A stretch of 64,000 nt of DNA from Vicinamibacterales bacterium (GCA_035463475.1 DATHTE010000123.1:91775-155774), one strand, 5' to 3'. Positions 9,481 through 56,464 are shown, counted from the stretch's first letter. Made by a program: numbers and translations. The notes: a model not told the origin generated them from the letters alone.

Positions 9481-10242
9481 ATGAGTAACGACAGAGACAA
9501 CGTCGGAGGGAACCGAAGCTCGACATCGCGGCTCGTCGACTCCGTCGACGCAATGGTCCGCTTGCCGCTCGAGATGACGGGCGCCACATGGGACCTCATG
9601 GTGCGCGGCATGCAGTCGATGACCGGCGGAATGCAGAGTAGGACGGGGCAGCGGAACTGGGATCAGAGCCGGAGCGGCAGCACAGTCCAGAGGACGACAG
9701 TAAGGGCGAACGGCGATCGGACGAGCTCGAGCTCTGGATCCAGCTGGACCTCAGGCTCGACCGGACAGGACGATCAGGACCTCAGCGGTGACGATCTCAA
9801 GTACGTCATCTGGTCCATCGCGTTCACCAAGCCGGGGTTCGAATGCGTGCTCCAGCCGCAGCACGAGGAAATCGTGAACTACGACGCCGACGGCGCGTCG
9901 TTCGCGGCGCTGAAGATCGCGAAGTTCCTCGAACGCGCGCGCCACGGCCGCGTGGACAAACCGGAGGCGTGGGGTGACATGTACCCGCCTGTCGTCTCGA
10001 GGACGAGCGGCCGGAGAACTGAAAGGACAACCGTAGTGACCTCTCCCGAGGGCACGACGGTGGACACCAACGCGGGCACGACGTCGGCATCCTCGAGCGA
10101 GCGCGGCTGGCGTATTCCGGCGGAGGACCAGAAGTACATCACGTTCCTCTACCGCGTGGATCGGCGGTTGCCCAAGGAGACCGAGGTGACGCGCGTGGAG
10201 CGCGTGACGGTCGAGCGCGGCACCTCGACGAAGATCGTCTGA
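9481..10242 (+). CDS. Hypothetical protein (253 aa) with Ser/Thr-rich linkers
   Basis: ATG at 9481 with GAGGAGG upstream. It lies inside the longer track ORF 8704..10242, whose upstream part is antisense to xylB. The N-terminal helix SRLVDSVDAMVRLPLEMTGATWDLMVRGM loosely resembles the N-module of the 21784/24044/33420 proteins. Confidence 0.65.
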   Translation: MSNDRDNVGGNRSSTSRLVDSVDAMVRLPLEMTGATWDLMVRGMQSMTGGMQSRTGQRNWDQSRSGSTVQRTTVRANGDRTSSSSGSSWTSGSTGQDDQDLSGDDLKYVIWSIAFTKPGFECVLQPQHEEIVNYDADGASFAALKIAKFLERARHGRVDKPEAWGDMYPPVVSRTSGRRTERTTVVTSPEGTTVDTNAGTTSASSSERGWRIPAEDQKYITFLYRVDRRLPKETEVTRVERVTVERGTSTKIV

Positions 10243-10332: not shown

Positions 10333-12024
10333 CTAGAAATGGCCGAGCCGCGTGATGCCCTCGCCTTCGACGCAATCGTACGCGCTCCCGGAGCGAAGCG
10401 ACTTGTACTCCTCCGTCCTGCCGCTCGGCCAGATGAGATGCACGCGGTCCACGACGTCCTGCCGGCCGAGGCCGAAGGTGACCGGCAACTCTGACTGCGA
10501 CAGGTAACTCGATCCGCACTTCACCATCCGCGTCTGCGTCGTCCCACCGTGCTCAATCCTCACCGTCGCGCCGATGCCGTCCCGGTTGGACCGTGTTCCT
10601 CGCAGCCGGAACCGGATCGAACGTCGCGCTGACGGGTGATCCGCGCGGAACAGCTGCGCCGGTCCGTTGTTGGCGGTCAGCAGCAGGTCGAGGTCGCCGT
10701 CGCGATCGAAATCGCCGCACGCCAGGCCGCGGCCGACCTTCGGCGTGACGAAGGAGGCGCCGGCCGCTGCGGCGACGTCCTCGAAATGGCCGCCGCGGTT
10801 GAGGAACAGCTGCGGCGGCTGCGCGTAGCCGACCGGGCCGCGCATTTCGCGCAGCGGCTCGTCGATGTGCCCGTTCGCCACCACGAGGTCGAGCCTGCCG
10901 TCCAGGTCCATGTCGGCGAAGACGCACCCGAAGCCGAGCGTGTGTCGCGACGCCGTCCCGACGCCGGCCCGGATCGCGACATCTTCGAACCGGCCCGGCC
11001 GGACCTCACGGTACAGCCCCATCATCTCGTTCTCGAAATTCGTGATCGCCAGGCCGAAACGGCCGGAGTTGTCGAAGTCCCCAACGTCAACGCCCATTCC
11101 GGCCCGCGCCTTGCCGTCGGCGCTGAAGGCCACGCCCGCGTCGAGCGCCACGTCGCGGAAGGTCCCGTTGCGCAGGTTGCGATACAGCTTGTTCGGCTGC
11201 GTGTCGTTCGCGACCAGGAGGTCGGGCCAGCCGTCGACGTCGTAGTCGAACATCGCGACGCCGAGCGACTTCGAGCTGGTGTCGAAGATCCCGCTCGTCG
11301 CGGTGACGTCCTCGAACGTGCCGTCGCCGCGGTTGCGGAACAGCCAGCACGTATCGCCGCGGTACGCTTCGGGTGTGCAGTAGGACTTGCGCTGGCCGTT
11401 CGCGCTGCAGAAGACGTCGTGCTCGGGCGACCACTTCACGTAATTACAGACGAAGAGGTCGAGCCGCCCGTCACGGTCGTAGTCGAACCACAGCGCCGAC
11501 GTGCTGAGGGCGTGCCGTCCGCCGAGCCCGCTCCGCTCGGTCACCTCCACGAAGGTGCCACGTCCGGTGTTGCGGAAGAGGCGGTTCTGGCCGACGCACG
11601 TGATCAGCAGATCGGGAAAACCGTCGTTGTCGTAGTCGGCTGCGGCGACGCCGAGCCCGTACGTTTCCACGTCGAGGCCGGCGCGCCGTGTCACGTCCGT
11701 GAACGTGCCGTTGCGATTGTTGTGAAACAGCCGCGGGGTCGATCGTCGCCGCTTGTGCCCCGGCCAGTCGCATCCGTTCACGAGGAGGATGTCCGTCCAG
11801 CCGTCGGCGTCGTAATCGATGAACGCGCATCCGGAGCCGAGCGTTTCGGGCAGCAGCTTTCCGCCGTATGCCCCGTTGTTGTGGCGGAACGGCACGTGGG
11901 CTCTCGCCGTGACATCGACGAGGCGCACGCCCGGCTCGGCGGGCTGCGAAGCGGCCGCGGGAGGGCGGATCGCGCCGGCAAGGCCCGCCGCCCCCATCGC
12001 CCGGATGAACTCGCGCCGGTTCAT
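10333..12024 (-). CDS. CRTAC1-family protein (FG-GAP/VCBS repeats + ASPIC/UnbV C-terminal domain), Tat signal
   Basis: MNRREFIRAMGAAGLAGA (twin-arginine signal). Repeated DYDxDGxxDL..xN.....L[FY]RN.G.GTFxDV units. C-terminal NRDGIGATVRIEHGG...SSYLSQSELPVTFGLG...IWPSG. Confidence 0.9.
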   Translation of the reverse strand: MNRREFIRAMGAAGLAGAIRPPAAASQPAEPGVRLVDVTARAHVPFRHNNGAYGGKLLPETLGSGCAFIDYDADGWTDILLVNGCDWPGHKRRRSTPRLFHNNRNGTFTDVTRRAGLDVETYGLGVAAADYDNDGFPDLLITCVGQNRLFRNTGRGTFVEVTERSGLGGRHALSTSALWFDYDRDGRLDLFVCNYVKWSPEHDVFCSANGQRKSYCTPEAYRGDTCWLFRNRGDGTFEDVTATSGIFDTSSKSLGVAMFDYDVDGWPDLLVANDTQPNKLYRNLRNGTFRDVALDAGVAFSADGKARAGMGVDVGDFDNSGRFGLAITNFENEMMGLYREVRPGRFEDVAIRAGVGTASRHTLGFGCVFADMDLDGRLDLVVANGHIDEPLREMRGPVGYAQPPQLFLNRGGHFEDVAAAAGASFVTPKVGRGLACGDFDRDGDLDLLLTANNGPAQLFRADHPSARRSIRFRLRGTRSNRDGIGATVRIEHGGTTQTRMVKCGSSYLSQSELPVTFGLGRQDVVDRVHLIWPSGRTEEYKSLRSGSAYDCVEGEGITRLGHF

Positions 12025-19312: not shown

Positions 19313-19576
19313 ATGATCGAGGAGAATCAGATTCGCGAGACGATACGTGAGAGCGTCCACCGCATCACCGGGATTGCGCCGGCCGAGATCCACGAGACCT
19401 CGAGCTACCGCGAGGATCTCGGGCTCGACTCTCTCTCGGCGCTCGAAGTGGTGATCGACCTGGAGTACGCATTCAAGATCAAGGTTCCGGAAGAGCGAAT
19501 CCAGACGATCAGGAACGTGCAGGATACGATCGACGTGGTGCAGGAATACCTTTCGGCACCCGCTCGGACGGCGTAG
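19313..19576 (+). CDS. Acyl carrier protein
   Basis: 87 aa with EDLGLDSLSALEVVIDLE, containing the DSL phosphopantetheine attachment motif. Confidence 0.9.
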   Translation: MIEENQIRETIRESVHRITGIAPAEIHETSSYREDLGLDSLSALEVVIDLEYAFKIKVPEERIQTIRNVQDTIDVVQEYLSAPARTA

Positions 19577-19913: not shown

Positions 19914-21599
19914 GTGCCGGCACGAGTAGCCGTCGTCGCGTACCGCGACGGCATCGCGGAGCCCATCCTGGACGCGCTGCGACGCTCCGCCGGTGTCGAG
20001 CTTTGCGAGCGCGTGCCGATCGATCCGCAGGGAATCGATGCGGTCGCGTTCAGCCGGTACAACACGATCGTGTACTCGGCGCTCCCTGCCGCGGGTCCCT
20101 CAACGGGACCGGACTTGGGGACTGCCCGCGCGGTGTGCCAGCGGCTCGCGTCGTTGCCTCTCCGGCACGTGGTCACCATCTCCAGTGCGGCAGTCTATTC
20201 GCCGAGCCACCAGAACCTCGGTCTGCTCGAGGAGCGCGCGTTCATCCCGTCGCGCAGGAGCGCGATCGCCGATGGGTGGCGCGACGTCGAACAGATGAGC
20301 GCCCTCATCAGCCAGCGTTCGGGCGCGGCGCCGCCGGTCCGCTCGATTCTCCGTCCGGCCGCGGTGCTCGACGGCGTCGATTACTTCAGCCGCCTGCTCG
20401 GCGGACGCGTGGCTGTGACCTATCCCGGTCACGACCCGACGATCCAGCTCCTCAGCCCGTGCGACCTGGCCGACGCGATCGCGGCGGTGATTGCCGCGGG
20501 TCGCGGCGGCACGTTCAACGTGGTGCCGACGGCCGGCGTGCCGTTGCGCGCGGCGCTTCGAATCGCCGGTGTAAAGCGGCTGCCGATCGGCAGGGTGGCC
20601 CAGAACGCCGTCAGGGCGATCACCTCGCAGGCGGGCCTGGCCGTCTCGGCGGACCAGCTGAAATACATCCAGTACTCGTGGACCGTGTCGGGGGAGAAGA
20701 TTAGGCGCGAGCTCGGGTTCGTCCCCTCCCGGTCGAGCGTCCAGGCGATCGTGGAATGCATCGGCCGCGGCACTCCGGCCGATGCGGCGAAGCAGTTCGA
20801 CGACTTCGGCATGGATCCGGATTACATCCGGCGCTACTGCGGCCACCTGTTCCGGTTTCTCCACGACTACTACTGGCGTGTCGAGATCGACGGAATCTCC
20901 GAGGTGCCGCGGAAGGGGCGCGGCGTGCTCGTTGGGATGCACCGCGGGTTCATGCCTTTCGACGGCGTGATGGCGCTGCACGCGCTCGTAACGCGGCGCG
21001 GCCGCATTCCGCGGTTCCTGATTCACCCCAGCCTGACCAAGTTCCCGTTCCTGGCGGACTTCATGGCCAAGCTCGGGGGCATCATGGCCTGCCAGGAGCA
21101 CGGCGACTACGTGCTGCAGCACGACGAGCTGCTCGGCGTGTTCCCCGAGGGCATCCGGGGAACATTCACGATGTACAAGCGGGCCTACATGCTCGGCAAG
21201 TTCGGTCGCGACGAGTTCGTGCGGATGGCGCTGAGGAACCGCGCCCCCATCCTGCCCTTCGTCACCGTCGGAAGCGCGGAGATCTACCCAATCCTGCGGC
21301 GCGTGGACTGGCGGTGGTTCAAGCGCTACACGGAATGGCCGTTCCTGCCGATCACGCCAGCGCCGTTCCCGCTGCCGTCGAAGTGGCACACGCGGTATCT
21401 GCCCGCCATGCACGTCGAGGAGCAGTATCCGCCGGAGGCGGCCGAGGACCCCGCGCTGGTGCATCGCATCAGCCTCGAGGTGCGGCAGCGGATGCAGGCG
21501 GCGATTGACGACATGCTGCTGCGCCGACGCTCGATCTTCTTCGGATCGATCTTCGAGCAGGCGCGCCCGCCGGAAGGCGAGGAGGCCGCGAGCATCTGA
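19914..21599 (+). CDS. Fusion protein: degenerate NAD-epimerase/SDR-like N-domain + lysophospholipid/glycerolipid acyltransferase (PlsC/LPLAT) C-domain
   Basis: GTG at 19914 with AAGGAG 10 nt upstream. The N-half resembles extended SDRs (VVTISSAAVYSP, TFNVVP), but the Gly-rich motif reads VAVVAYRDGIAEP. The C-half has GVLVGMHRGFMPFDG, GVFPEGIRGT (FPEGTR-type motif) and PILPFVTVGSAEIYP. Confidence 0.8.
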   Translation: MPARVAVVAYRDGIAEPILDALRRSAGVELCERVPIDPQGIDAVAFSRYNTIVYSALPAAGPSTGPDLGTARAVCQRLASLPLRHVVTISSAAVYSPSHQNLGLLEERAFIPSRRSAIADGWRDVEQMSALISQRSGAAPPVRSILRPAAVLDGVDYFSRLLGGRVAVTYPGHDPTIQLLSPCDLADAIAAVIAAGRGGTFNVVPTAGVPLRAALRIAGVKRLPIGRVAQNAVRAITSQAGLAVSADQLKYIQYSWTVSGEKIRRELGFVPSRSSVQAIVECIGRGTPADAAKQFDDFGMDPDYIRRYCGHLFRFLHDYYWRVEIDGISEVPRKGRGVLVGMHRGFMPFDGVMALHALVTRRGRIPRFLIHPSLTKFPFLADFMAKLGGIMACQEHGDYVLQHDELLGVFPEGIRGTFTMYKRAYMLGKFGRDEFVRMALRNRAPILPFVTVGSAEIYPILRRVDWRWFKRYTEWPFLPITPAPFPLPSKWHTRYLPAMHVEEQYPPEAAEDPALVHRISLEVRQRMQAAIDDMLLRRRSIFFGSIFEQARPPEGEEAASI

Positions 21600-21783: not shown

Positions 21784-22242
21784 GTGGAGATGCGCGAAGT
21801 GGCCAAGTCGATCCTCGGGCTCTCGTGGGCAGTGTCGCTGTTTGGCTTTCAGCAGCTGTCGAAGGCGATGACACCGGCGACGACCCAGCCGTGTGACGTG
21901 ACCGCGACGGAGGTCGATGAAGTGTCGCGCGCGGTGCAGAGTCGGCTCTCCGACTCCGCCGCGCAGCAGTTCCGCGCCGGCGACGAGTGGCAGCGCCGCA
22001 TGGTGGACATCATGTTCGACATGGCGTCGCTGCGGGCGGTCGAGCCGCGCAAGATGGTCGAGGTTCTCGACCCGCGGACGCTGATTGAGACTGCCGATCC
22101 GCGCGCGATGATCGAAACGAGCGTGACCGTGATCCAGAAGAGCATCGACACCGCCGTGAACGCCATGCGGCAGACCGCCGACACGGCCATGGACCTGACC
22201 AAGCGGGCCGTCGATTCGGTCAGGCCATCGGCGACAGCGTAG
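21784..22242 (+). CDS. Hypothetical protein (152 aa); stand-alone copy of the N-terminal module of the 24044 and 33420 proteins
   Basis: GTG at 21784 (AAAGG upstream). EVAKSILGLSWAVSLFGFQQLSKAMTP aligns with DLLKSTLTLPWAISMFGVQQLTNLVTP (24044 protein). ...WQRRMVDIMFDM aligns with ...MQRAMVDLMMF. Confidence 0.6.
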   Translation: MEMREVAKSILGLSWAVSLFGFQQLSKAMTPATTQPCDVTATEVDEVSRAVQSRLSDSAAQQFRAGDEWQRRMVDIMFDMASLRAVEPRKMVEVLDPRTLIETADPRAMIETSVTVIQKSIDTAVNAMRQTADTAMDLTKRAVDSVRPSATA

Positions 22243-22299
22243 TACGACCCTGCGGCGCCGCACGGCGCATGGTCGCACGGGGGGCCGTGCGGAGATCGG

Positions 22300-24021
22300 A
22301 TGGAGACTGCGGTTCACCACGGCGGCTACGTGACGCGGCACCGTGCCGCGCTGGCTGCCGCGCGGCCGATTCTGCGGCGGCTGCCCCACATCCTCCGGGT
22401 GGTGATCGCTCACGGGATCGCGAATGTCGTCGCGTCCCGCCCCCGCCTGCGATGGCTCGCGCGCTGGGCGCCGCTCGCCCGGCTCACCGGTCCGGAGCGC
22501 TTCCGGCGCCTGTTCGAGGACCTCGGCGGGAGCTTCGTCAAGTTCGGGCAGATGCTCGCGCTCCAGCCCGACATCGTCTCCCTCGAGTACTGCGACGAGC
22601 TGTTCAACCTACTCGATCGCATGGCGCCGTTCCCCTACGAGTTCGTCGAGCAGGTCTTCCGGGAGGAGCTGGGCCAGTCACCCTCCGACCTCTTCGATCA
22701 CTTCGATCCCGTGCCGCTGGCGACCGCGTCAATCGGGCAGGTTCATGCCGCGGTCCTGCACGGGCGCAAGGTCGCCGTGAAGGTGCAGCGCCCGGGCGTC
22801 GAGGCCGACTTCGACGGCGACCTCCGCCTGCTCGTGCTCGCCATGCGGTTCATCCGGCGCCTGCAGGTGAGGTCGCTCTACTGGGTGCTCGATCCCGGCG
22901 GTGAGTTCATCTCCTGGACGCGCGAGGAGCTCGACTACCGACGCGAGGCGCGGTACGCCGAGCGGCTGCGGCGCAACGCGGAGTTCAACCCCCAGGAGCG
23001 TGTGCCGGCCATCGTATGGGAGCTGACGACCCGCCGCACGCTGGTGATGGAGTTCATGTCGGGGATGACCGTCCTCGACTACCTGCGCGCCCTCACGACC
23101 GGCGACGAGTGGACGACGTACCGGCTGCGAGCCGACGGGTTCGACCCGAACCTCTTCGCGCGGCACATCATCGACAACTTTCTCGGCGATGCATTTCAGT
23201 ACGGCGTCTTTCATGCCGACCTGCATCCTGCGAACCTTCTCGTGCTGCCGCAGAACGTGGTCGGGTACGTGGACTTCGGCATCACCGGCGTGCTGAGCCG
23301 CTACTCGCGGCGCCACCTGGTCGAGATGACGCTCGCCTACACGCGCGCGGACGTCCGCGGCATGGCCGACGCGTACTTCAAGCTCGTGACGTATCGATCC
23401 GATGCCGACCCCGATCTGTTCCGGCGGCTGCTGGCCGAGACGTCGCAGGACTGGTATGAAGAGGGCGAGGCGGAGACGGTCTTCAGGAAGAACTTCACGC
23501 TGGTGATGCTGGACTTCCTGACGCTGTCGCGCAAGGCGGGTATCGGGCCCGAGCGGGATGTGGTTAAATACATCCGCTCGACCATCGCGGCAGACGGGCT
23601 CATCACGCGGTTTGCGCCCGGGTTCAGCGTGGGACGCCACCTCGAGGACGTCTGCCAGCAATGGATCGCTCGCGAAGCGCGCCGAGTCGCGTTCAGCTAC
23701 AACACGTTGACGGCCCTCGTCGCCTCCGGCGGCCGGCTGATCGAAGACGGGCCCGCGCGCGCCGCCTCCGTGCTGCGGCGGGTCGCCGAGGGCGAAGCCC
23801 TCGGTCGCGTCGACATCACGACAATCGCCCGGCGTGACGAACGCGTGCGCAAGCGCACGATTCGGCTCGCGGGAATCGCCGTGGCGTTCACGGCGTTGCT
23901 CGAGCTCACGGGCGCGGCGCCGGAGCTGGGGCTGAATCTCTTTACCGTCGAAGCGGCACTCGTGGCGGGTGCGTTGCTCCTGCTCGCAGACTCTCTGAGA
24001 GAACTTGCTTTTGCCGGCTGA
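22300..24021 (+). CDS. ABC1/UbiB-family atypical protein kinase (canonical motifs), two C-terminal TM helices
   Basis: GGSFVKFGQMLALQPDIV (KxGQ motif), ASIGQVHAAVL.GRKVAVKVQRPG (catalytic Lys), FHADLHPANLLV, and YVDFGITG (DFG). GGAG lies upstream of ATG 22300. Confidence 0.9.
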   Translation: METAVHHGGYVTRHRAALAAARPILRRLPHILRVVIAHGIANVVASRPRLRWLARWAPLARLTGPERFRRLFEDLGGSFVKFGQMLALQPDIVSLEYCDELFNLLDRMAPFPYEFVEQVFREELGQSPSDLFDHFDPVPLATASIGQVHAAVLHGRKVAVKVQRPGVEADFDGDLRLLVLAMRFIRRLQVRSLYWVLDPGGEFISWTREELDYRREARYAERLRRNAEFNPQERVPAIVWELTTRRTLVMEFMSGMTVLDYLRALTTGDEWTTYRLRADGFDPNLFARHIIDNFLGDAFQYGVFHADLHPANLLVLPQNVVGYVDFGITGVLSRYSRRHLVEMTLAYTRADVRGMADAYFKLVTYRSDADPDLFRRLLAETSQDWYEEGEAETVFRKNFTLVMLDFLTLSRKAGIGPERDVVKYIRSTIAADGLITRFAPGFSVGRHLEDVCQQWIAREARRVAFSYNTLTALVASGGRLIEDGPARAASVLRRVAEGEALGRVDITTIARRDERVRKRTIRLAGIAVAFTALLELTGAAPELGLNLFTVEAALVAGALLLLADSLRELAFAG

Positions 24022-24043
24022 CCCTCGGCAGAAAGGCCCGGTC

Positions 24044-25429
24044 ATGGAAACCACGACGCAATCATCGACGTTTCGCGACCTCCTGAAGTCGACGTTGACC
24101 CTGCCCTGGGCGATTTCGATGTTTGGCGTCCAGCAGCTCACCAACCTCGTGACGCCGCCGCCGGCCGGGCGCGTGGCGGGCGCGACCTCCGCGCTCGACA
24201 CCGTCAGCGACGTGACCGCGAAACAGCTCGACGGCTGGCTGAAACAGACCTACCAGCTCGGCACCGGCATGCAGCGTGCGATGGTGGACCTCATGATGTT
24301 CCGCACGCCCGACATCGATCAGAGTACGCTCATGCGCATCGCCGCCGAGATGCAGGATGGCCCACTGTTCGAGGCGGTCGTGAAGTACGGGCTCCCGCCG
24401 GTCGGCTGGCTCGACTCGTGGCTCGTGTCGCGGCGCGACGCGCCGGCCGTCACGCAGGAGTTCACGAACAAGCTCTACATCATCTCCCTCGTGACCCACG
24501 TGCATTCCGAGCTCGGGCTCAGCTCGAAGACCGTCGACCCGCTCGGCGTGCTGGTCGACAAGGTGGCGGAAATGCCGACGTTTCCCCGCGTGTGGGCCAC
24601 CGAAGGGCTTGGCAACTGGTTTGGCGATCTGGCGATGGAGCGGGCGGCCGACGGCCCGGATCCCACTGGTCTGCTCACCGACCCGCAATACGACTCGCTC
24701 CCGGCGTGGAGCATGACGATGCTGCACGCAGGCATCGGCATGTCGTTCGGCAAGGCGATCCTCAAGAAGCTCGAGCCGACGAGCTCGCCGGAAACCATCC
24801 GGGGAGAGCTGGCCCGCTTCCTGAGGTTGTGTCGTGAATCGTCGCGTCCGGGATACGCCGGCGCCGCGCTCGAGTCGCTTGGCCTCGCGACCCGGTCGCT
24901 GTATCCAAACCTGCTGCCGGTCCTCGACCGCGAGATGCCGTACGTCGATCCCGATCTGCAAAGCTACTACTGGCACGGCGCTGGCCGCGCGATGTACTTC
25001 GAGCCGGCGGGCTGGCTGCCCTCGGTCAACGCGCCGTGGCGCGTCATCAGGCGGCTCGACGCGGAGACGCCGCACGACCTCGGTCGCAAGAACATCCTCT
25101 CTGGCATCGGGTGGGCGCTCTCGGTCGTCAACATGCGTCATCCGGTGGTGATGGAGACGTTCCTGCGCCATCACGCGGCGCTGGCGAGGACCGAGGACGC
25201 GTTCACCAACGGCGTCGTCTCGTCGCTGATGATGCGGTTCGACACGACGCGCGACGACGCGCACATCTCCCCCTACATTCGCTACGAACCGTCTGATCCG
25301 GAGGTCGCGTCGGCGTGGCGGACGCTGATTACCGAGCCGTGCGAGCACGCCCTGCGCGACACGTACGGCAACCTGCTGCGGACCAACTCGCTCGAGCAGC
25401 TGTTCCACTACCGCCCGGCGGGAAGCTAG
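24044..25429 (+). CDS. Hypothetical protein: shared N-module + DUF1702-like (enediyne UnbL-type) C-terminal domain
   Basis: ATG at 24044. The C-domain has MLHAGIGMSFG, GYAGAALESLGLA, SYYWHGAGRAMYF and GIGWALSVVN. This is the periodic HxGxG / aromatic-EGxG pattern I associate with DUF1702. It is paralogous to the 33420 protein. Confidence 0.65.
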   Translation: METTTQSSTFRDLLKSTLTLPWAISMFGVQQLTNLVTPPPAGRVAGATSALDTVSDVTAKQLDGWLKQTYQLGTGMQRAMVDLMMFRTPDIDQSTLMRIAAEMQDGPLFEAVVKYGLPPVGWLDSWLVSRRDAPAVTQEFTNKLYIISLVTHVHSELGLSSKTVDPLGVLVDKVAEMPTFPRVWATEGLGNWFGDLAMERAADGPDPTGLLTDPQYDSLPAWSMTMLHAGIGMSFGKAILKKLEPTSSPETIRGELARFLRLCRESSRPGYAGAALESLGLATRSLYPNLLPVLDREMPYVDPDLQSYYWHGAGRAMYFEPAGWLPSVNAPWRVIRRLDAETPHDLGRKNILSGIGWALSVVNMRHPVVMETFLRHHAALARTEDAFTNGVVSSLMMRFDTTRDDAHISPYIRYEPSDPEVASAWRTLITEPCEHALRDTYGNLLRTNSLEQLFHYRPAGS

Positions 25430-25445
25430 AGCCGGCCGCGGAGCG

Positions 25446-27029
25446 ATGGCCACGTCACTGGTAGCGCGCAGCCCCGCGTCCGGCCGCGACGGCCGGCGGA
25501 AGCAGGTCGAGACGGTACTCAACGCGCTCGGTCTCCCCGTTCCCGAGCGCCGCTCGCCGCCACCCGAGGGGCGCCTCGGGGCGGACGAGGACTACGGGCG
25601 CCGGCTGCGCGAGGCGCTCACCGATCTCGGCCCGGTCTTCGCCGGCTTCGGCCGGTACCTCGGGTCGCGCGCCGATCTGGCGCCGCGGCGCACGCGCGCC
25701 GAACTGGCGACGATCCCGGACGAGGGGCAGGCGCTGCCGTTCGCCTCGGTCGCGGCACTGGTGCGCGCGCAGCTCGGGGCGCGGCCCGAGCGGCTGTTCT
25801 TCGAGTTCCATCGGGATCCCGTCGCGGTCGGCTCGTGGACGCAGTCGCATCTGGCGTGGCTCGCCCCAGGGGTGCCGGCGCTGGTGACCATCGTCCGTCC
25901 CGATGCCGCCGACGAGCTCGATATCGACATCCCGCTGCTGCCTCTTCTCGCGCCGTGGATCGACGTGCCTGCCGGCCTTCTTGCCGCCGCGGTCGCGGAC
26001 TACGAGTTGACGGTGCGGCGACGCCTGGATCAGAAGCACCAGGCTGCCTCGCTGACCAGTCTCGCGGCCGACGCCCGCAGCGGCGGAGGATTCGACGCGC
26101 CTGCCTGCTACCGCGATCACTGCGCGCCGAACGTCCTGACGGTCGAGCGGCTCGTCGGAGAGCCCCTCGACGCGCAGCCGCGTGGGGCTGAGGCGCTGGC
26201 GCGCCGGGTAACGGCCGCCTGGCTGCGACAGGCCTTCGCCGGCAACGTGGTGCCCTATGACTTCGGGCCGCGCGACCTCGTCGTGATCGACGAGCGCCTT
26301 GTGCTCACGGGGGGCGCTCTCGAGCCCCACTCGTCGGTCGAACGTGCGCGCTTCGCGGCGTACCTGAGCGCCGTCGCCTCCGACGATCCCGACGCGGCCG
26401 CCAACTGGATTGTCGAGGGGGCCAGTCCATCTCCCGCCGTCGAGTCGAGGCTTCGGCGCCTGTTGCGGCAGGCGGTCCCGTTCCGCGAAGGCGAGTGGAG
26501 CGGCGATGATCGCCTCGTGCAGCACGTGCTCGTGCAGTGGCGTGTCGCGCGCAACGCGGGGTGGCCCGTCTCACCCCATCATCTCCACCTGTACCGCGGC
26601 CTCCAGGCGGTGGCGCAGATTGCGCATGACCTCGCGCCTGACGTGGACACGCTGCTCCGGGCGCTCGAGGACGAACGCCTGCGAATCGGCCTGTCGCAGG
26701 CGGGCGAGTTGCTCAGCCCGCGCTACGCCGTGGCGACCCTCGACCGCGCGATCCAGGAACTCGCCGATCTTCCACAGAAGTTCGATGACGTGCTGACGAT
26801 GGCGTCCCAGGGGCGATTGCGGATGAACCTGCAGGTACCCGAGGCGGAAGAGAACGAGCGCGTCCGCAACCGCACCGTGCTGCTCGTGACCACGCTGGTC
26901 GCCTTCGCGGCGGTCGCCACCATCGCGCGCCACCTTGCGCCCGCATTCGGCGTCGGCATCGAGCGCGCCGGCGCGATCATCCTGCTGCTGGTGGGCGGGT
27001 GGCTGCTGTTCGCCGCGTCCCGGTTGTGA
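25446..27029 (+). CDS. ABC1/UbiB-like pseudokinase (catalytic motifs degenerate), two C-terminal TM helices
   Basis: LGPVFAGFGRYLGSRADLAP replaces the KxGQ motif. ALVTIVRPD replaces VAVKVQRPG. PYDFGPRDLVV replaces HADLHPANLLV. No DFG is present. It has the same length and architecture as the 45925..47505 paralog. Confidence 0.75.
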   Translation: MATSLVARSPASGRDGRRKQVETVLNALGLPVPERRSPPPEGRLGADEDYGRRLREALTDLGPVFAGFGRYLGSRADLAPRRTRAELATIPDEGQALPFASVAALVRAQLGARPERLFFEFHRDPVAVGSWTQSHLAWLAPGVPALVTIVRPDAADELDIDIPLLPLLAPWIDVPAGLLAAAVADYELTVRRRLDQKHQAASLTSLAADARSGGGFDAPACYRDHCAPNVLTVERLVGEPLDAQPRGAEALARRVTAAWLRQAFAGNVVPYDFGPRDLVVIDERLVLTGGALEPHSSVERARFAAYLSAVASDDPDAAANWIVEGASPSPAVESRLRRLLRQAVPFREGEWSGDDRLVQHVLVQWRVARNAGWPVSPHHLHLYRGLQAVAQIAHDLAPDVDTLLRALEDERLRIGLSQAGELLSPRYAVATLDRAIQELADLPQKFDDVLTMASQGRLRMNLQVPEAEENERVRNRTVLLVTTLVAFAAVATIARHLAPAFGVGIERAGAIILLLVGGWLLFAASRL

Positions 27030-27031
27030 TC

Positions 27032-29515
27032 ATGATGCCCGGCGGGCCGCAGGCAGCCAGATCCGCGTACTTGTCGCTCGCGACGGGGGGCGGTGGAGAG
27101 TCGTCGCCCATTCTCTTCGCATCCAATCCGGTGGGGGACGCGCTGCTGGCGACCGGCATGATGGCGGTGGCCGGCGCGGCGACGATGGTCCCCGTCCTGC
27201 CCGTCCGCATTTCCGGGATCGCGGTCCGCGAGACGCTGCACCGCCTCGGCACCGAGGCGCTTCCGCCGACCCCGGAGCGCGGCGTGACCGCCGCCAACCG
27301 GCTGGGCGAAGCGCTCGGCACAATCGCGATGCGCTGGCTGGTCGCTCCCGAGGGGTTCGAGGCCACGCCGTCGGTGCCTCCACCCCACACCGAGCTGGAT
27401 TCGTCGCGGTCGCAGCGGTTCGTGATGCAGGACGGCGCCCTGCGCTTCCAGGACCGCACGCAGAGCGGCCTGCGCTTCTTCGGCGCCGGACGTACCTATC
27501 CCTCGAAGGGGAACGGAAACGGCCACCTCCTGTTCGCCGGCGCCGCGGTGGTCGTCGAGGGCCTCGGCCGGTTGAGGGGACTACGCGGCAGTCTCAGCGT
27601 CGCCGGCGAGATCTCCGGGCGATCGCTGGTGTCCCTGGTCGTCACGGGTCGCTTCGACGACGACGGGCCGCTCGAGATGGTCGAGCGGGTCGGCCTCATG
27701 ATCGACAGCGCGCCGGGCTGTCCGAACGCGACGGTGCTGGTGCTGGCGGGTGAGTCGAACGGCGGCTCGGCGATGGGCCAGATCGAGGAGCGCCTCCGCA
27801 TGGCGCGCATCGAAAACGACCTGGCGAACGCCACACAGCCACGCAGCGCCTTCCATGCCGGCGAGAACGTTGGGAGCGCGACCGGACCGTTGCGGTTCGA
27901 TCCGTCCGACCGCCGCTGCGCGATTCGCCTGATCGACGGCCGGCGCGAACTGACGTTCGGCGACGCCGCGGGGCAGCCGGTCGCGACGATCGTCGCAGAT
28001 GCCCTCGAGGGCACCACCTTTCGAGATCAGCACGCGGGCGAGCACGTGTCGCGCGTGATCGCGTACGGCCAGTTATCGGAGGGCACCGGCGCGCTGGCGG
28101 GCGCGGGGGGAATCCTGGCCATCGACACGGCGGTCTCGATCGACGCATCTGCCTCCAGCGTGTATACGCTGTGGCTGATCGACGAGCGAGGCCGGTTTCG
28201 CGCGCCGGCACCGGCGCCCGCCGCTGCGATCTCGCGCGCGAGCACGGCGCCCGGGCCGGCAGAGGAGCTCCAGTTCGTCGAGACGAGCGCCGCGTCGATC
28301 CTGCCCGCCGACGTCGCGATTCTCGCCCATGCCCAGCGGACGCTCGCGGACGGGGGCGATCTGAACCAGTGGCTCCAGGAGAAGAGTCGATCCGCCGACT
28401 ACCGAGAGCGGTTCGACGTCGTTCGGGAGCACACCTCCGACGACGACAGCTTCGGCTTCTTCGACGTGGCGCCGGTCGGCGGCACCCAGATGCCGGTGAT
28501 GGGCATCGTCCAGGAGATGTTCTACGACCGTCAGAAGCTGGGAAGCCCGGAGCCGATACGCGAGCAGCTCGCGGAGTTCGTCCTGCGCTATTTCATGCGT
28601 GTGTGTCACGCGGGCGAACCCGAAGCCGTCCCGGCCAGGCCCGGGGCGCCCGACACGGCGCTGCAGCGCGCCATGAGCTGGCTGCCCGGAGAGGCGCAGC
28701 GCAGCGCCGGAGCGGGGTACCAGCAGCTGTATTACGGGCTCGCCGAGTCGGGACAGACCGGGAAGTTCACGCACGACGAGCGTCCGGCGATCGTCGACCT
28801 GCGGGAGATCGGATCGAAGTACGAGTGGATCCTGCTCAAGGGAGACACGCTCTCCTTCGATCTTCCGTTCGTGCCGTTCGGGGCGGAGGTCACCACGCCG
28901 CAGGCGCCGGCAAAGCAATCCACGTATCTGCTGATGGCGCCCGCCTTCGTGGTCAACGCCCACGACCCTGAGCCGGGTGTGCTCGGCCACTACGGCTTCG
29001 GTTACGCGTTCGTGCCGTACGCCTCCGGCGGCCCGGGCCTGCTCGCCTACGGCCCCGGCCGGTTCCGCGCGGCGGTCCAGGCGGTGAGCTTCAAGCTGAT
29101 GGCGAACGGCGAGATCCGCGCCCGCACGATGTTCGTGGTCGCCCGGCCGGATAAAATCGCGGCGGTCGACGTGGATCCAATCGGGTGGAGCGTGCAGCTG
29201 GCGGACCTCGTGACGTTCCGGATGGCGTCGCGGCTCATGGGGCCCGTGCTCGCGATGGCCGACCGCCTTCCGCTGCACGCCCGGGATTTCGATCCGGTTG
29301 CGGCCTACATCTGGATGGCCAATACAATGACCGCCGGCATGGCCGAGAACTACCTCGGCATTTCGAAGGCCGCGCTCGAGAAGCGTATGCTGTTCCAGCA
29401 CCTGCGGTCGCACCAGGAGATGTTGCATCGATCACTGCGGATCTGGCGCATGGTGCCGGACTGGACCGCGCACGCGAAACTGCCGGACTTCTGCCATCGG
29501 GGCATGGGATGTTGA
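27032..29515 (+). CDS. Large hypothetical protein (827 aa); the C-terminal roughly 330 aa are homologous to the 52265..53284 protein
   Basis: ATG at 27032, 2 nt after the upstream stop. High GC3 throughout. C-terminal REIGSKYEWILL, GFGYAFVPYA and YGPGRFRAAVQAVSFKLMANGEIRARTMFVVARPDKI align with REIGTKYQWSLL, AIGYPFIDYA and FGPGKFDWAVKTYSFLLRDNNEVRCDMEFVAGARAKKV. Confidence 0.7.
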   Translation: MMPGGPQAARSAYLSLATGGGGESSPILFASNPVGDALLATGMMAVAGAATMVPVLPVRISGIAVRETLHRLGTEALPPTPERGVTAANRLGEALGTIAMRWLVAPEGFEATPSVPPPHTELDSSRSQRFVMQDGALRFQDRTQSGLRFFGAGRTYPSKGNGNGHLLFAGAAVVVEGLGRLRGLRGSLSVAGEISGRSLVSLVVTGRFDDDGPLEMVERVGLMIDSAPGCPNATVLVLAGESNGGSAMGQIEERLRMARIENDLANATQPRSAFHAGENVGSATGPLRFDPSDRRCAIRLIDGRRELTFGDAAGQPVATIVADALEGTTFRDQHAGEHVSRVIAYGQLSEGTGALAGAGGILAIDTAVSIDASASSVYTLWLIDERGRFRAPAPAPAAAISRASTAPGPAEELQFVETSAASILPADVAILAHAQRTLADGGDLNQWLQEKSRSADYRERFDVVREHTSDDDSFGFFDVAPVGGTQMPVMGIVQEMFYDRQKLGSPEPIREQLAEFVLRYFMRVCHAGEPEAVPARPGAPDTALQRAMSWLPGEAQRSAGAGYQQLYYGLAESGQTGKFTHDERPAIVDLREIGSKYEWILLKGDTLSFDLPFVPFGAEVTTPQAPAKQSTYLLMAPAFVVNAHDPEPGVLGHYGFGYAFVPYASGGPGLLAYGPGRFRAAVQAVSFKLMANGEIRARTMFVVARPDKIAAVDVDPIGWSVQLADLVTFRMASRLMGPVLAMADRLPLHARDFDPVAAYIWMANTMTAGMAENYLGISKAALEKRMLFQHLRSHQEMLHRSLRIWRMVPDWTAHAKLPDFCHRGMGC

Positions 29516-33419: not shown

Positions 33420-34670
33420 ATGACAGTGACCCAGGCTACCGAACGGACCAATCCCCTCACGGACATGATGCACACCACCGGCGACCTGATGAAATCGGTC
33501 GGCCGGTTCTCCCTCGCCATGTCGCTGCTCGCGGCGCGTCAGGCCATGGCGATCGTGTCGCGCCCGAAAGCGGCGTCCGGCGAGCTCGACGACGTGACGC
33601 GGGCCGCGGGCGGTCACCTGTCGGGCGCCGTCCGCACCGCGTTCGCGATTGGCGCGAACGTGCAGAGCGGCCTCGTCGACGCCGCGTTCGACGCCGTCGG
33701 CATGCGCCCGAAGGGGCAGCAGCCGTCGGGCGACACGACCGCGCTCTCGGTGCCGATGACGACCGGCGTGCCGCGTCGCGTCGCCGGCGTGCGGACGGTC
33801 GCGTCGGGCGCCGTGGATCGCGGGGTGCCGCAGTCCGAGCTCGTGCAGCGGCTGACCGAGTACCAGACGGAGTCGACCGGCCGCCCGGTGGAGCGCGCCA
33901 AGGCGGTCACCGGCCTGTGGAAGTCGGAAGGGCTGTCCACGTCGGTCGGCAAGCACCTTCTTCCCGAGAACTCGCTGGCAGACCCGAACTTCCCGCGCGA
34001 GGTCGTGCCGATCGCGCACGTGGGGTTCGGCTCCGGATCGACCGAGGATCTGGTGTTCGACGTCGCGAAGCTGAACGGGCTGTTCGCGGCGCGCTGCGCC
34101 CCCGCGTACATCGGTTTCGCGTACGAAGGGATCGGCGCCATCCTGCGCATCTATGAGCGCGGCTTCTTCAAGCTGATGAGCGGCGCGCTCGGTCTCATTC
34201 GCCTCGACGCGCCCGACGGGCCGAACGCGGAGGGGCTGTTCGCCGACTATCTCAGTCAGTACCCTGAAGACCGGCAGTGGCTGATCGTTCACGGGTACGG
34301 TCGCCTCGTCGCCTTCAGCAACATGAACATCTACAAGGCGATCGAAGAGATCACGACGTATCCCGCCGATCGCGTGGACCCCGCCGTGCGCGGCGCCGCG
34401 TTTGCGTTCGCCATGATGAACAGCGCCGACCTGCCCAGGGTCCTCGACGAGAGCGCCATTCCGTTCGACCGATCCATCCGCGTGTCGTTCCAGAACGGCC
34501 TGGTGAACAGTGTGGTGTTCTTCGACTGGTTCCTGCCGGGACTGCTCGAAGACTGGCGGCCGCAGGGCGCGCTCGAAGGGGAATTGATCGATCACGCGCG
34601 CCTCGAGGCGGCCGCCGCGCGCGAACGCGGGTATCCGCTCGCGATGCAGCTCGAACACCCGCGCACGTAG
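33420..34670 (+). CDS. Hypothetical protein: shared N-module + DUF1702-like domain (second paralog)
   Basis: ATG at 33420 with GGAG upstream. N-terminal GDLMKSVGRFSLAMSLLAARQAM...VQSGLVDAAFD. C-domain IAHVGFGSG, GFAYEGIGAILRIYE, WLIVHGYGRLVAF, GAAFAFAMMN. Confidence 0.65.
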   Translation: MTVTQATERTNPLTDMMHTTGDLMKSVGRFSLAMSLLAARQAMAIVSRPKAASGELDDVTRAAGGHLSGAVRTAFAIGANVQSGLVDAAFDAVGMRPKGQQPSGDTTALSVPMTTGVPRRVAGVRTVASGAVDRGVPQSELVQRLTEYQTESTGRPVERAKAVTGLWKSEGLSTSVGKHLLPENSLADPNFPREVVPIAHVGFGSGSTEDLVFDVAKLNGLFAARCAPAYIGFAYEGIGAILRIYERGFFKLMSGALGLIRLDAPDGPNAEGLFADYLSQYPEDRQWLIVHGYGRLVAFSNMNIYKAIEEITTYPADRVDPAVRGAAFAFAMMNSADLPRVLDESAIPFDRSIRVSFQNGLVNSVVFFDWFLPGLLEDWRPQGALEGELIDHARLEAAAARERGYPLAMQLEHPRT

Positions 34671-40573: not shown

Positions 40574-41962
40574 TCAGGAGATCACTCGCGGCCGGATGTT
40601 CTTGTTGCCCGAGAAGAGATTCTCCGGGTCCCACGCGGTCTTGACGTCCACCAGCCGCGCATAGTTCGCGCCGTAGGCGGCCCGGATGCGGTCGTCCCCC
40701 TCTTCTTCCGTGAGGAAATTGACGTACGTGCCACCGGTCGACAGCGGGCGGATATCCTGCCACGCGCGCCGCGCCCACTCGATGTTCGCGGCGTCGTCCG
40801 CGGCGCGCTCCCAGGATCCCATGATGTTGACCACGGCTGTTGCGTCGCGGTTGCCCGCGGGCGAATGGTCCGCGGGCAGCCGGTTCAGCGCGCCGTCAAC
40901 CGGAAAGACGAGGACCCCGGAGTGCGGCGAAACCGCCCGGAGCGCGGAGTCCCGCAGGTTCTGCAGCGCGTCCGTCGTCAACGCCGGCAGATACTCGGAC
41001 TTCCAGTAGTACCGGCGTCCTTTCGGCTGCGTGGCGTCGAGCACGCTCTGCTGCGAGAGGTAGCTGCGGCGCTGGATGATGTCCCCCACCGGCGACCCGG
41101 TCGCCCTCCACGGTGCGATGAGTTTCTCGCCGTCCGAGGGGGATCCGGAGTAGCACACGAAGAGCGCGACGATCGGTTTCCCGTGAATCATCGTGCTCAG
41201 CCACGGCGCCGGCGGCGCGCGGCGCACCACCGGCACGCATGAGAGTTCGGGAGGCGCGTCGCGAAACACGCGCTGAAACGCCGCGAACACCGCGTCCGCC
41301 TGATCGGCCGGCCACGCGATGGCGCCGCCGTAGATGTCGGGCCCGACCGGATGCAGCCGGTACTCGAACCCGGTGACGACGCCGAAGTTGCCGCCGCCGC
41401 CGCGAAGGCCCCAGAACAGATCGGGGTTCTCCCGATCGCTGGCGCGGACGACCCGCCCATCGGCGGTCACGACCTCGAAGGCGGAGACGTTGTCGCCCGC
41501 CCAGCCAAAGCGACGGGTGAGGTACCCGAAGCCGCCGCCGAGGGTCAGGCCGGCGATGCCCGTGGTCGAGACGAACCCCGCCACGGCGGCGAGGCCGTGG
41601 ATCTGCGTTTCCCGATCGAGGTCGCCGAGGAGGCAACCGGGCTGCGCCCGGGCGACGCGGGCCGCCGGATCGACCCAGACCCCTCGCATCAGCGAGAGGT
41701 CGATCATCAGCGCCTCGTCGCGGACCGCGAGCCCGGCGATGTTGTGGCCGCCGCCCTTGATCGAGAGCGGCAGGCGGAGCTCACGCGCGAAGTTGACGCA
41801 CGAGACCACGTCGCCCACGCCGACGCAGCGCGCGACGAGCGCCGGGCGCCGGTCGATCATGCCGTTCCAGATCGAACGGGCGTCGTCGTAGCCGGCGTCG
41901 CCGGGACCGAGCACGGTGCCGCGCAGCTGCGCCTGCAGGTCGCCCGCGACGGCGGGACTCAC
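40574..41962 (-). CDS. FAD-linked oxidase (FAD_binding_4 + berberine-bridge-enzyme-like C-terminus)
   Basis: GTG at 41962 (GTGA overlap with the upstream stop). PLSIKGGGHNIAG, DLFWGLRGGGGNFGVVTGFEYRLHP, C-terminal NYARLVDVKTAWDPENLF. Confidence 0.9.
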   Translation of the reverse strand: MSPAVAGDLQAQLRGTVLGPGDAGYDDARSIWNGMIDRRPALVARCVGVGDVVSCVNFARELRLPLSIKGGGHNIAGLAVRDEALMIDLSLMRGVWVDPAARVARAQPGCLLGDLDRETQIHGLAAVAGFVSTTGIAGLTLGGGFGYLTRRFGWAGDNVSAFEVVTADGRVVRASDRENPDLFWGLRGGGGNFGVVTGFEYRLHPVGPDIYGGAIAWPADQADAVFAAFQRVFRDAPPELSCVPVVRRAPPAPWLSTMIHGKPIVALFVCYSGSPSDGEKLIAPWRATGSPVGDIIQRRSYLSQQSVLDATQPKGRRYYWKSEYLPALTTDALQNLRDSALRAVSPHSGVLVFPVDGALNRLPADHSPAGNRDATAVVNIMGSWERAADDAANIEWARRAWQDIRPLSTGGTYVNFLTEEEGDDRIRAAYGANYARLVDVKTAWDPENLFSGNKNIRPRVIS

Positions 41963-44319: not shown

Positions 44320-44326
44320 GGGCGGT

Positions 44327-44896
44327 TCAGACCCTCTTCAGCGGGCGCGGGATCGTGTAGTAAACGGAGGCGATGGCGCAGCCGAAGCTCGGCGTGTCCG
44401 CCCTTGGAATGGGACGGCCCGCCAGCAGGCATACGACCGCCGGTTCGAGGTACGCCTCGTACTCGTTGTCTTCGGGGTACTTGAAATTGTCGATGGCCCC
44501 CCGGTAGACGAGGCGGCTTTCGGCGTCCACGAGAAAGGCGCGCGGCGTCTGCTGCGTGAACAGTTGGCGGGCGACCGCCGTTCCGGTGTCGTAGAGCGTC
44601 GGGAACACCAGCCCGCGCGCGGCGAGCGCCGCGCGCACGTCATCGGCCGTTTCGTCCTGTCGCGACGCAATCGCCGCGAACGCCAGCTCGGGATGCTGCT
44701 CGGAGAACTCGTTCAGGTACCGGTCGTACCGCGCGCAATGCGAGCACACGCTCGACCAGAACACCAGGACGGCGCCGCGGCCGCGCGCGGCCATCTCGTG
44801 CAGCCGCCAGGGTCCGTGCGGCGGCGTGACGAACGAGAGCGCGAAGTCGGGCAGGATGGTTCCGATTGCTTGCTCGGTGCGTTGCTCCGGCGACAT
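44327..44896 (-). CDS. Thioredoxin-fold (redoxin/TlpA-like) protein with CxxC and a conserved C-terminal GC motif, no signal peptide
   Basis: GGAGG upstream of ATG 44896. VLVFWSSVCSHCARY (CxxC), TPRAFLVD, C-terminal TPSFGCAIASVYY. About half of the residues are identical to the 49349..49921 protein by eye. Confidence 0.8.
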   Translation of the reverse strand: MSPEQRTEQAIGTILPDFALSFVTPPHGPWRLHEMAARGRGAVLVFWSSVCSHCARYDRYLNEFSEQHPELAFAAIASRQDETADDVRAALAARGLVFPTLYDTGTAVARQLFTQQTPRAFLVDAESRLVYRGAIDNFKYPEDNEYEAYLEPAVVCLLAGRPIPRADTPSFGCAIASVYYTIPRPLKRV

Positions 44897-44914
44897 TCGA
44901 TCAGCCCTCCTCGA

Positions 44915-49193: not shown

Positions 49194-49223
49194 CGTTGTT
49201 TGTGCACCGCTCCCGCGCAAGGA

Positions 49224-49239
49224 GTGGTAACCTTACCAC
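49224..49239. promoter_or_regulatory. Perfect 16-bp palindrome GTGGTAACCTTACCAC in a 155-bp divergent promoter region
   Basis: The 7-2-7 inverted repeat was read directly: GTGGTAA (49224-49230) / TTACCAC (49233-49239). It is locally AT-richer than the surroundings. It lies between the divergent operon starts at 49193 (minus) and 49349 (plus). Confidence 0.5.
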
Positions 49240-49348
49240 AGACACAGACGGCATCTGTAGATCGTGATCCGCCCATCCTCCATCGATGGGTATTCGTGTG
49301 GTCACCGGCGTTGGCCACGCTCCACTTACGACAATCTGGCGGACCGAT

Positions 49349-56273: not shown

Positions 56274-56464
56274 GTGTCCACGCCACGCTGAGCCGGTCGC
56301 GGTCTCCGGTCTGACGACATCCTCCGACATGTGGTAGCCTTTCGGCGCCGCGTTGACGCCGTGAGGACCATGCCTGCCGCCACCACATTCGAGTTGACCT
56401 CCTCCCCAATCGAAAAGCCGTATTCCCCACCGATCAGCTCGAAGAGCGGCCCAGTTGAAGAACG

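Follow-up and report, generated by a model that had tools for sequence, protein, structure and literature searches.

A portable N-terminal helical module linked to ABC1/UbiB genes in Acidobacteriota

Three genes in a 64,000-nucleotide stretch of DNA from a Vicinamibacterales bacterium (GCA_035463475.1 DATHTE010000123.1:91775-155774; G+C content 68%), here denoted A, B and C, encode proteins that share an N-terminal helical module of about 78 residues. The whole stretch is referred to below as the window, and all positions are counted from its first nucleotide. The homology of the copies, the independence of the domain, its N-terminal position, the range of its fusion partners, its synteny with ABC1/UbiB genes and its physico-chemical profile were observed, and taken together they characterize the module as a portable N-terminal domain without catalytic function, marking the proteins of one conserved UbiB-linked pathway. 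We regard it as a new domain family, which would be a variation on a known principle, that of the shared terminal targeting or docking tag. The reading that we prefer, with a probability of roughly 40%, is that the module acts as a docking or co-localization tag, dependent on a partner, for a UbiB-linked lipid pathway. Four points go beyond these facts and are inferred: that the module binds another protein, which protein this is, where in the cell the module proteins reside, and that the pathway makes a lipid. Extracts from the literature describe the UbiB/ABC1/COQ8 proteins as ancient and widespread, with a molecular role that is still argued. A module encoded between two UbiB genes offers a handle for testing the interaction, localization and phosphorylation of UbiB-linked proteins, as a domain that is reused on several enzymes.

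Three related N-termini

Gene A (21790–22242, plus strand) encodes a stand-alone module protein of 150 residues. Its open reading frame (ORF) was listed from a GTG at 21784 (152 residues); the orthologues use the ATG at 21790 (MREVAKS), which is the probable start. The module occupies 21790–22023 on the plus strand and comprises helix 1 (MREVAKSILGLSWAVSLFGFQQLSKAM), a linker and helix 2 (EVDEVSRAVQ...FRAGDEWQRRMVDIMFDM). Gene B (24044–25429, plus strand) encodes 461 residues, consisting of the module (24071–24301, plus strand; residues 10–86, FRDLLKSTLTLPWAISMFGVQQ ... GMQRAMVDLMMF) and a conserved all-α domain of no recognized family. Gene C (33420–34670, plus strand; 416 residues) combines a divergent module (33480–33692, plus strand; residues 21–91, GDLMKSVGRFSLAMSLLAARQ ... 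NVQSGLVDAAFD) with a helical domain homologous to that of B, and has an extension of about 20 residues ahead of the module. An earlier note on this DNA had placed the module at the extreme N-terminus, which describes A and very nearly B, where it starts at residue 10; in C it starts only around residue 21. All three ORFs have a coding-type codon bias, with a G+C content at third codon positions (GC3) of 0.89–0.90 (0.89 for A).

The note had aligned the N-termini encoded at 21784, 24044 and 33420, and the similarity proved to be statistically significant. By BLASTP, A matched B with 50.4 bits (E = 2e-12; 27/75 residues identical) and matched C with E = 9e-6 over the second conserved block, while B matched C with E = 1e-4. 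Family alignments were built for each protein from its orthologues (A1 for A; A2; A3), and profile–profile comparison gave a probability of 98.8% for A and B (E = 7e-17, 77 columns) and of 97.3% for A and C (E = 2.2e-11, 76 columns). When all 633 six-frame ORFs of the window were searched with a hidden Markov model (HMM) built from the three copies, A, B and C alone were matched, and the runner-up had an E-value of 0.43; the E-values of A, B and C with the module HMM were 2e-35, 1.2e-33 and 1.7e-29, respectively. Two further likenesses that the note had drawn were lost. The supposed weaker copy at 9481 gave no hit at E<10 with the three-copy HMM or at E<1 with the module HMM, and an hhalign probability of 0.25%; the CRTAC1 paralogues, said to start with looser amphipathic helices, gave no HMM hit. 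As judged from these comparisons, the window encodes the module once as a stand-alone protein and twice in distant paralogues of a common architecture. A has 109 orthologues (110–171 residues), all of them hypothetical proteins and the named ones all from Vicinamibacterales or Acidobacteria. The 277 homologues of B, each annotated as a hypothetical protein, are from Vicinamibacterales, and the 226 homologues of C, likewise hypothetical proteins, come, where named, from Vicinamibacterales or from metagenome-assembled genomes (MAGs) of Acidobacteria.

The anatomy of the module was derived from a joint alignment of 36 N-termini (A4) and a profile alignment of 157 sequences. It consists of helix 1, a variable proline-containing linker and helix 2. 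Helix 1 (profile positions 3–29) has the consensus MRELTKSMLSFSWAMSLFGxQQ and is moderately hydrophobic and rich in Ser, Ala and Gly, and the consensus of helix 2 is F-D-x-V-T-x-A-T-E-x-Q-L ... F-x-A-G-D-x-L-Q-R-G-x-V-D-x-x-F. Positions M3, R4, K8, S9, W15, Q24, G65, Q69 and D74 are at least 90% conserved, with K8, S9, W15 and Q24 reaching 93–98%. The second conserved block that the note had seen in each protein (WQRRMVDIMFDM, MQRAMVDLMMF and VQSGLVDAAFD) is present in all three copies; it corresponds to profile positions 68–78 and contains Q69 (97% conserved) and D74 (95%). The traits that define the family are the N-terminal position, the pattern K-S-x5-W-A-x-S-x-F-G-x2-Q in helix 1 and the pattern G-D-x2-Q-x3-V-D in helix 2. 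Both motifs are complete in A and B. The copy in C retains K8, S9, Q24, G65, Q69, V and D74 of these motifs, but has Leu in place of W15 and Ala in place of G21.

Extent of the family and its linkage to ABC1/UbiB genes

The A4 profile was searched against 1.84 billion representative proteins, clustered at 50% identity. Matches were found in 887 representative clusters at E≤1e-3 and in 545 at E≤1e-10, and the best 150 of the 887 were inspected. In nearly all of these 150 the match starts at residue 1–3; most of the proteins are stand-alone and 90–200 residues long, and the module is usually followed by a low-complexity linker. The note had allowed that the module might be no more than the beginning of a single, already known domain; no match to it was found in Pfam, in NCBIfam, in PDB by sequence or in the literature. 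By all these searches, the module is a previously unannotated domain family of about 78 residues, and at least 887 clusters at 50% identity are now defined as belonging to it.

The profile search also revealed a range of fusion partners. The module was found joined to a B-type helical domain (P0463 and P0479; the C-terminus of P0479 resembles a winged helix only weakly, its HTH_24 score of 17.2 bits falling short of the cut-off of 21.9), to Abhydrolase_1 (E = 1e-20 to 1e-26), once together with an ABM monooxygenase domain, and to proteins of ~1080–1170 residues with a weak GDSL-lipase match. It also occurs in proteins of 482 and at least 774 residues without a family match, and as a tandem duplicate. 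In some genomes (loci L020 and L012) a B-type domain lacking the module adjoins a stand-alone module gene, a pattern of fusion and fission. The module is an independent, portable unit, found on its own or joined to no fewer than four unrelated kinds of C-terminal part.

In many of the stand-alone proteins (P0359–P0497; L005, L008, L009, L011, L015 and L025) the tail contains a linker rich in Gly, Ala, Pro and Ser and dotted with Trp. A near-invariant motif, GWGP[MVI]P, lies within the last 5–20 residues of 55/148 of the best representatives (37%), and CC or CxxC is present in 22/139 small module proteins (16%). Eight of the nine GWGPMP matches in the fetched loci fall in module-bearing ORFs, the ninth lying in another frame inside the module gene of L007, and in one α/β-hydrolase fusion GWGP[MVI]P stands between the module and the enzyme domain. 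A literature search with the GWGPMP string gave no match, and the motif is not found in A, B or C of the window. A instead has three nine-residue repeats of the form [DE]PRxhhExx (EPRKMVEVL, DPRTLIETA and DPRAMIETS; residues 85–111, 22042–22122, plus strand), followed by a helical tail; the DPR of these repeats is conserved in the Vicinamibacterales orthologues, in place of the GWGPMP-type tail of other lineages.

A taxonomic scan for the helix-1 peptide FSWAMSLF, taking one genome per species, gave 32 loci, a sample biased to one variant of the motif. Of these, 28 carry titles from the Acidobacteriota (Thermoanaerobaculia, Holophagales, Blastocatellia, Pyrinomonadaceae and unclassified Acidobacteriota or Acidobacteria), which are among the most abundant and least studied soil phyla. 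Of the other four, three have no label beyond "bacterium", and the fourth, a MAG, has the label Clostridia.

In the window, A and B are interspersed with two genes for atypical kinase-like proteins of the ABC1/UbiB family, ABC1a (22300–24021, plus strand; PF03109, E = 1.3e-59) and ABC1b (25446–27029, plus strand; PF03109, E = 7.4e-19), and both of these are conserved neighbours of module genes. The synteny was counted in 37 loci with 65 module genes, which were gathered via the module itself and partly via one exact peptide pattern; stop-to-stop ORFs were compared with the window proteins as queries. An ABC1 gene lies within 700 nt of 38 of the 65 module genes, and is adjacent to 20 of the 27 small module genes, often with gaps of only 4–60 nt. 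In L010, L033 and L035 the small module gene lies directly between ABC1a and ABC1b. The core that is found in distant lineages consists of the acyltransferase, ABC1a, a small module gene, a B-type gene, sometimes AhpC/TSA, and ABC1b. The fusions of ~1150 residues lie between RPE65 and DinB genes, which is the neighbourhood of C in the window, and in a more distant genome C-type genes are found directly 3' of an ABC1 gene. Twelve module genes are followed directly by one type of gene of ~430 residues, corresponding to the N-terminal half of an 829-residue protein encoded in the window.

Docking and the alternatives to it

The conservation of helix 1 is high (about 3.0 bits per position) and is spread over all of its faces (information moment 0.09–0.2), and its hydrophobic moment (μH) is low, 0.16–0.35. 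The note had called this helix hydrophobic or amphipathic; it is moderately hydrophobic, but not amphipathic. Helix 2b is amphipathic (μH 0.44–0.54) and conserved on one face. On a helical wheel, two stripes of small residues, S9/S12/A16 and T7/S14/S18/G21, run along helix 1 between ridges of bulky hydrophobic residues, an arrangement which, in our reading, indicates that helix 1 has other helices packed against it on at least two sides. Conservation all round together with a low μH is typical of a helix that is buried and packed in a specific way, and agrees with specific protein packing better than with generic lipid-surface binding. The best 19-residue Kyte–Doolittle window scores 0.97–1.12 in A, B and C, compared to 1.87–2.04 for the transmembrane helices of the three ABC1 proteins of the window (for ABC1a, 2.04 at residue 545, in a C-terminal transmembrane segment; for ABC1b, 1.96 at residue 476). 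A transmembrane anchor, for which about 1.6 or more over ~19 residues is required, was rejected on these values.

AlphaFold2 modelling of B from an alignment of 26 sequences gave long helices for residues 1–126 with a predicted local distance difference test (pLDDT) score below 50. In the module these helices (6–36, 43–61 and 65–84) are not packed on the C-terminal domain, and the module apparently does not fold onto B's own domain. The C-terminal domain reached a pLDDT of 80–98 from the same alignment, in which the module is equally conserved; such a difference is expected if the module folds only on a partner. The model of A has helices at 2–29 and 41–82 at low confidence (pLDDT 51), and was too poor for a fold search.

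The residue-specific conservation all round helix 1, its low amphipathicity and the AlphaFold2 models favour specific docking in a helix bundle. In this mechanism, helix 1 and a conserved partner would together make up a helical bundle, with helix 1 in its interior. Candidates for the partner are another copy of the module, a membrane-anchored UbiB/ABC1 protein encoded beside it, or both. A, B and C, and elsewhere the α/β-hydrolases and GDSL-like enzymes, would then be gathered at one site, the cytoplasmic membrane or a lipid body, where the product of the adjacent ketosynthase (KS), chain-length factor (CLF), acyl carrier protein (ACP), reductase, acyltransferase and oxygenase genes would be handled. 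If the tag is portable, heterologous enzymes could be targeted to the same site. More speculatively, and on balance improbably, the Acidobacteriota may build a lipid-handling compartment or metabolon, a functional analogue of the plastoglobules of cyanobacteria and plants, around the paired UbiB/ABC1 proteins, with the module as a phylum-specific address tag. Such a tag would recruit a disordered scaffold (the stand-alone form with its W/G-rich linker and GWGPMP end) as well as hydrolases and helical-domain proteins. If true, the module would be the first conserved protein partner to be linked genetically to a bacterial member of the UbiB family.

Several points weigh against docking. The low AlphaFold2 confidence could also mean association with a membrane. 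With its W, F, L and M residues, helix 1 is rather hydrophobic, and it begins with MR..K, features compatible with interfacial membrane binding. The synteny with ABC1 genes is likewise compatible with the module proteins being substrates or mere pathway members, and about 40% of the module genes, chiefly those of large fusions by RPE65 and DinB, are not adjacent to an ABC1 gene. Moreover, since the loci were gathered via the module, the synteny statistics are not an unbiased sample.

In every comparison that was run, the module fell outside the phasins, fibrillins, encapsulation peptides, transmembrane anchors and leaders of ribosomally synthesized and post-translationally modified peptides (RiPPs). 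By analogy of function, it would most resemble encapsulation peptides or docking tags and the accessory proteins of UbiB pathways. Like the module, encapsulation peptides are N-terminal helical extensions with a flexible linker, found on different enzymes of one locus, with co-localization as their inferred role. Their length is about 18 residues, they are amphipathic with little conservation of sequence, and they depend on shell proteins. The module, in contrast, is ~78 residues long, has near-invariant positions and a low μH in helix 1, and is also abundant as a stand-alone protein. Pfam scans of 36 ORF translations from the window, including part of the small ORFs, found no shell-protein (BMC-H/BMC-P) or encapsulin genes, nor were any present among the Pfam labels of the related loci, and the encapsulation-peptide likeness suggested by the note finds no support. 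Docking domains of modular synthases and dockerin-type tags are short terminal helical assembly units that are portable between catalytic domains, as is proposed for the module. They have no sequence or structural relationship to it, and the module also occurs as a small protein of its own, whose tail is disordered and ends in GWGPMP. The idea in the note of a targeting or anchoring device survives in its general form, that of a shared non-catalytic N-terminal device, mainly through data from outside the window: the occurrence of the module alone and in fusions, its N-terminal position and its one conserved gene neighbourhood support it. The specific analogies offered with it were not borne out.

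The main rival to docking is a direct anchor at a lipid surface or membrane interface, which we consider unlikely. The module would bind the monolayer of a neutral- or prenyl-lipid body, or the cytoplasmic membrane face, the small proteins forming a coat and the fusions being anchored enzymes. The Trp and Phe of the moderately hydrophobic helix 1, the amphipathic helix 2b, the lipid-type hydrolases among the fusion partners and a model that is helical yet unpacked all agree with this, and the gene set of the window mirrors the lipid-droplet proteome of cyanobacteria and plants (PMC12223511), the parallel covering three ABC1Ks, a DGAT2-like acyltransferase, redox proteins, carotenoid enzymes (a lycopene cyclase and a CrtO-type oxidase) and numerous uncharacterized small proteins. 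This parallel to the cyanoglobule and plastoglobule proteome makes a lipid-body location attractive whether the mechanism is docking or lipid anchoring. However, in lipid-binding amphipathic helices it is usually the polarity pattern alone that is conserved, whereas helix 1, with its low μH, is conserved all round, including the near-invariant polar residues K8, S9 and Q24, and its hydropathy (maximum ~1.0) is well below that of the ABC1 transmembrane helices (1.9–2.0).

Nor did the phasins and fibrillins, to which the note had likened the module, provide a precedent. They too are small and helical, and the gene context recalls the lipid-droplet proteomes (PMC12223511). The match of A to Phasin_2 (PF09361) was below threshold (19.6 bits against a cut-off of 24.9; for TIGR01841, 21.6 against 30.2) and lay beyond the module, at residues 98–147 in the C-terminal tail. 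Neither B nor C gave a phasin match, and Phasin_2 was detected in 0/48 stand-alone family members even at E≤10. PAP_fibrillin was not matched by A, B, C or their relatives in Pfam scans at E≤1 to 10, and no polyhydroxyalkanoate (PHA)-synthase gene was found in the window.

It is also conceivable, though improbable, that the module is not a localization tag but a recognition or acceptor domain that is bound and regulated by the flanking ABC1/UbiB proteins and is possibly phosphorylated on Ser or Thr. The tight, possibly translationally coupled arrangement of ABC1a, the module gene, (B) and ABC1b, with its short gaps, is in keeping with this, as are the conserved residues T7, S9, S14 and S18. 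In excerpts from the plant literature, the ABC1Ks of plastoglobules are discussed as kinases of plastoglobule proteins (e.g., PMC8956952, PMC4915526). On the other hand, conserved serines inside a hydrophobic helix would be an unusual kinase substrate, and many of the fusion genes do not lie beside an ABC1 gene.

Still more doubtful is a role as a carrier, in which oligomerized modules would form a helical bundle that holds the lipid substrate or product of the pathway and presents it to the fused enzymes, much as lipid-binding accessory proteins serve ubiquinone synthesis. The strong conservation of hydrophobic and polar positions alike, the fusion to lipid-acting enzymes and the UbiB context would suit such a role; but 78 residues in two or three helices cannot make a pocket alone, searches of Pfam, NCBIfam and PDB found no similarity to SCP2 or COQ9-type folds, and the reading is purely inferential. 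UbiJ/UbiK and COQ9 work with a UbiB-family protein and organize enzymes that act on very hydrophobic substrates. The module proteins share with them a small, helical, non-catalytic character, and their genes are tightly linked to two ABC1/UbiB genes, but no homology to the module was detectable. The window also differs from the UbiB/COQ8 pathways in its neighbouring genes, which are of polyketide/fatty-acid, acyltransferase and carotenoid-oxygenase-like types; no recognized ubiquinone-biosynthesis family was found in the scanned window.

An export signal or RiPP leader, with the variable G/S/C-rich tails as cargo or core, is scarcely credible: the layout of MR..K followed by a 14-residue hydrophobic stretch is superficially signal-like, and the low-complexity tails, with their cysteine pairs and terminal GWGPMP, resemble a leader–core layout, but the conservation is far above that of signal peptides, large enzymes are found attached to the module, and among the flanking genes no maturase, peptidase or exporter was detected. 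A Kyte–Doolittle maximum of ~1.0, the near-invariant positions, the Arg inside the helix of C and the N-terminal extension of C are unfavourable, though not decisively so, to a Sec or Tat signal, of which a strongly hydrophobic h-region behind a basic n-region, a cleavage site and low sequence conservation would be typical. NCBIfam, which holds curated RiPP leader-peptide models, has no family for the module, and its neighbours are ABC1, acyltransferase, hydrolase and uncharacterized genes. A RiPP leader was rejected on the grounds of the large fused enzymes and the missing maturases.

The helical domain of B and C and the surrounding genes

The C-terminal domain of B (24431–25408, plus strand; residues ~130–455) is predicted to be all-α, and is homologous to that of C (33903–34523, plus strand). 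It contains six recurring helix-start motifs of the form [E/H]G-x-G (WATEGLG, HAGIGMSF, ESLGLATR, WHGAGRAMYF, SGIGWA and FTNGV), and the B/C domain has invariant His, Cys and Arg residues. The note had regarded the proteins bearing the module as otherwise different, a view that the comparison of the B and C profiles with hhalign overturned: 317 columns were aligned with a probability of 98% (E = 2.9e-13), and 183 columns with 75% (E = 2.5e-5) after removal of the first 99 residues. Among the aligned motifs are WATEGLG/WKSEGL, HAGIGMSF/HVGFGSGS, GAALESLGLATR/GFAYEGIGAILR and WHGAGRAMYF/VHGYGRLVAF. On these profiles, B and C are distant full-length paralogues. The domain matched no Pfam or NCBIfam family, and a PDB sequence and profile search was empty. 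A Foldseek search of PDB with the B model gave no match at E≤1e-3, the best being ARM/importin-like solenoids with a TM-score below 0.25. A LanC-like α-toroid, considered on account of the repeated GxG motifs, was dropped because Foldseek gave weak solenoid matches only.

The module genes belong to a large cluster (14009–34670). The gene products in this region of the window are, in order, a histidine kinase, a KS, a CLF-like KS, an HMG-CoA-reductase-like protein, a CrtI-type amine oxidase, an ACP (19313–19576), an acyltransferase, A, ABC1a, B, ABC1b, the 829-residue protein, an FAD monooxygenase similar to lycopene cyclases and halogenases, an RPE65-type carotenoid oxygenase, DinB and C. The acyltransferase (19914–21599, plus strand) has an Acyltransferase/PlsC-type domain at residues 322–450 (PF01553, E = 8.7e-11), weakly matches DAGAT as well (3.9e-4), and is a conserved upstream member of the core in L003, L005, L006 and most of L008–L032. 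The same cluster is present in other Vicinamibacterales and is common to several classes of Acidobacteriota (L001, L003, L008–L014, L020 and L040). It defines a conserved, uncharacterized supercluster of lipid/polyketide type in Acidobacteriota; a literature search combining ABC1, Acidobacteria and acyltransferase cluster found no paper describing the large cluster from KS to DinB.

The gene order A, ABC1a, B, ABC1b (21790–27029) sets the window apart from all other loci examined, in which the order is ABC1a, A, B, ABC1b (for example, L001 8597–13524 and L003 8274–13469). The 829-residue protein (27026–29515, plus strand), which had no Pfam match and for which a PDB search was empty, is a fusion of two unrelated domains (residues ~50–395 and 410–826). 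Its halves are separate genes of ~430 residues in other Acidobacteriota, the N-terminal type often directly downstream of a module gene and the C-terminal type after B- or C-type genes.

The ORF at 9481–10242 (plus strand) encodes 253 residues rich in Ser, Thr and Gly, has a GC3 of 0.85 and is probably coding; it matches no Pfam or NCBIfam family and is unrelated to the module. An antisense ORF (9879–10142) has the same third-position bias, so that the strand assignment rests on ORF length only. The window also contains at least six CRTAC1-like paralogues (FG-GAP repeats and UnbV_ASPIC), a third ABC1 gene and two AhpC/TSA genes, a set located at 10333–12024, 41959–44337, 49896–52268 and 56459–63000, and at 44327–44914, 47502–49232 and 49268–49921. 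Elsewhere (L005, L006, L014, L021, L025 and L032), FG-GAP/UnbV_ASPIC and AhpC/TSA genes lie within or beside the core of acyltransferase, ABC1 and module genes.

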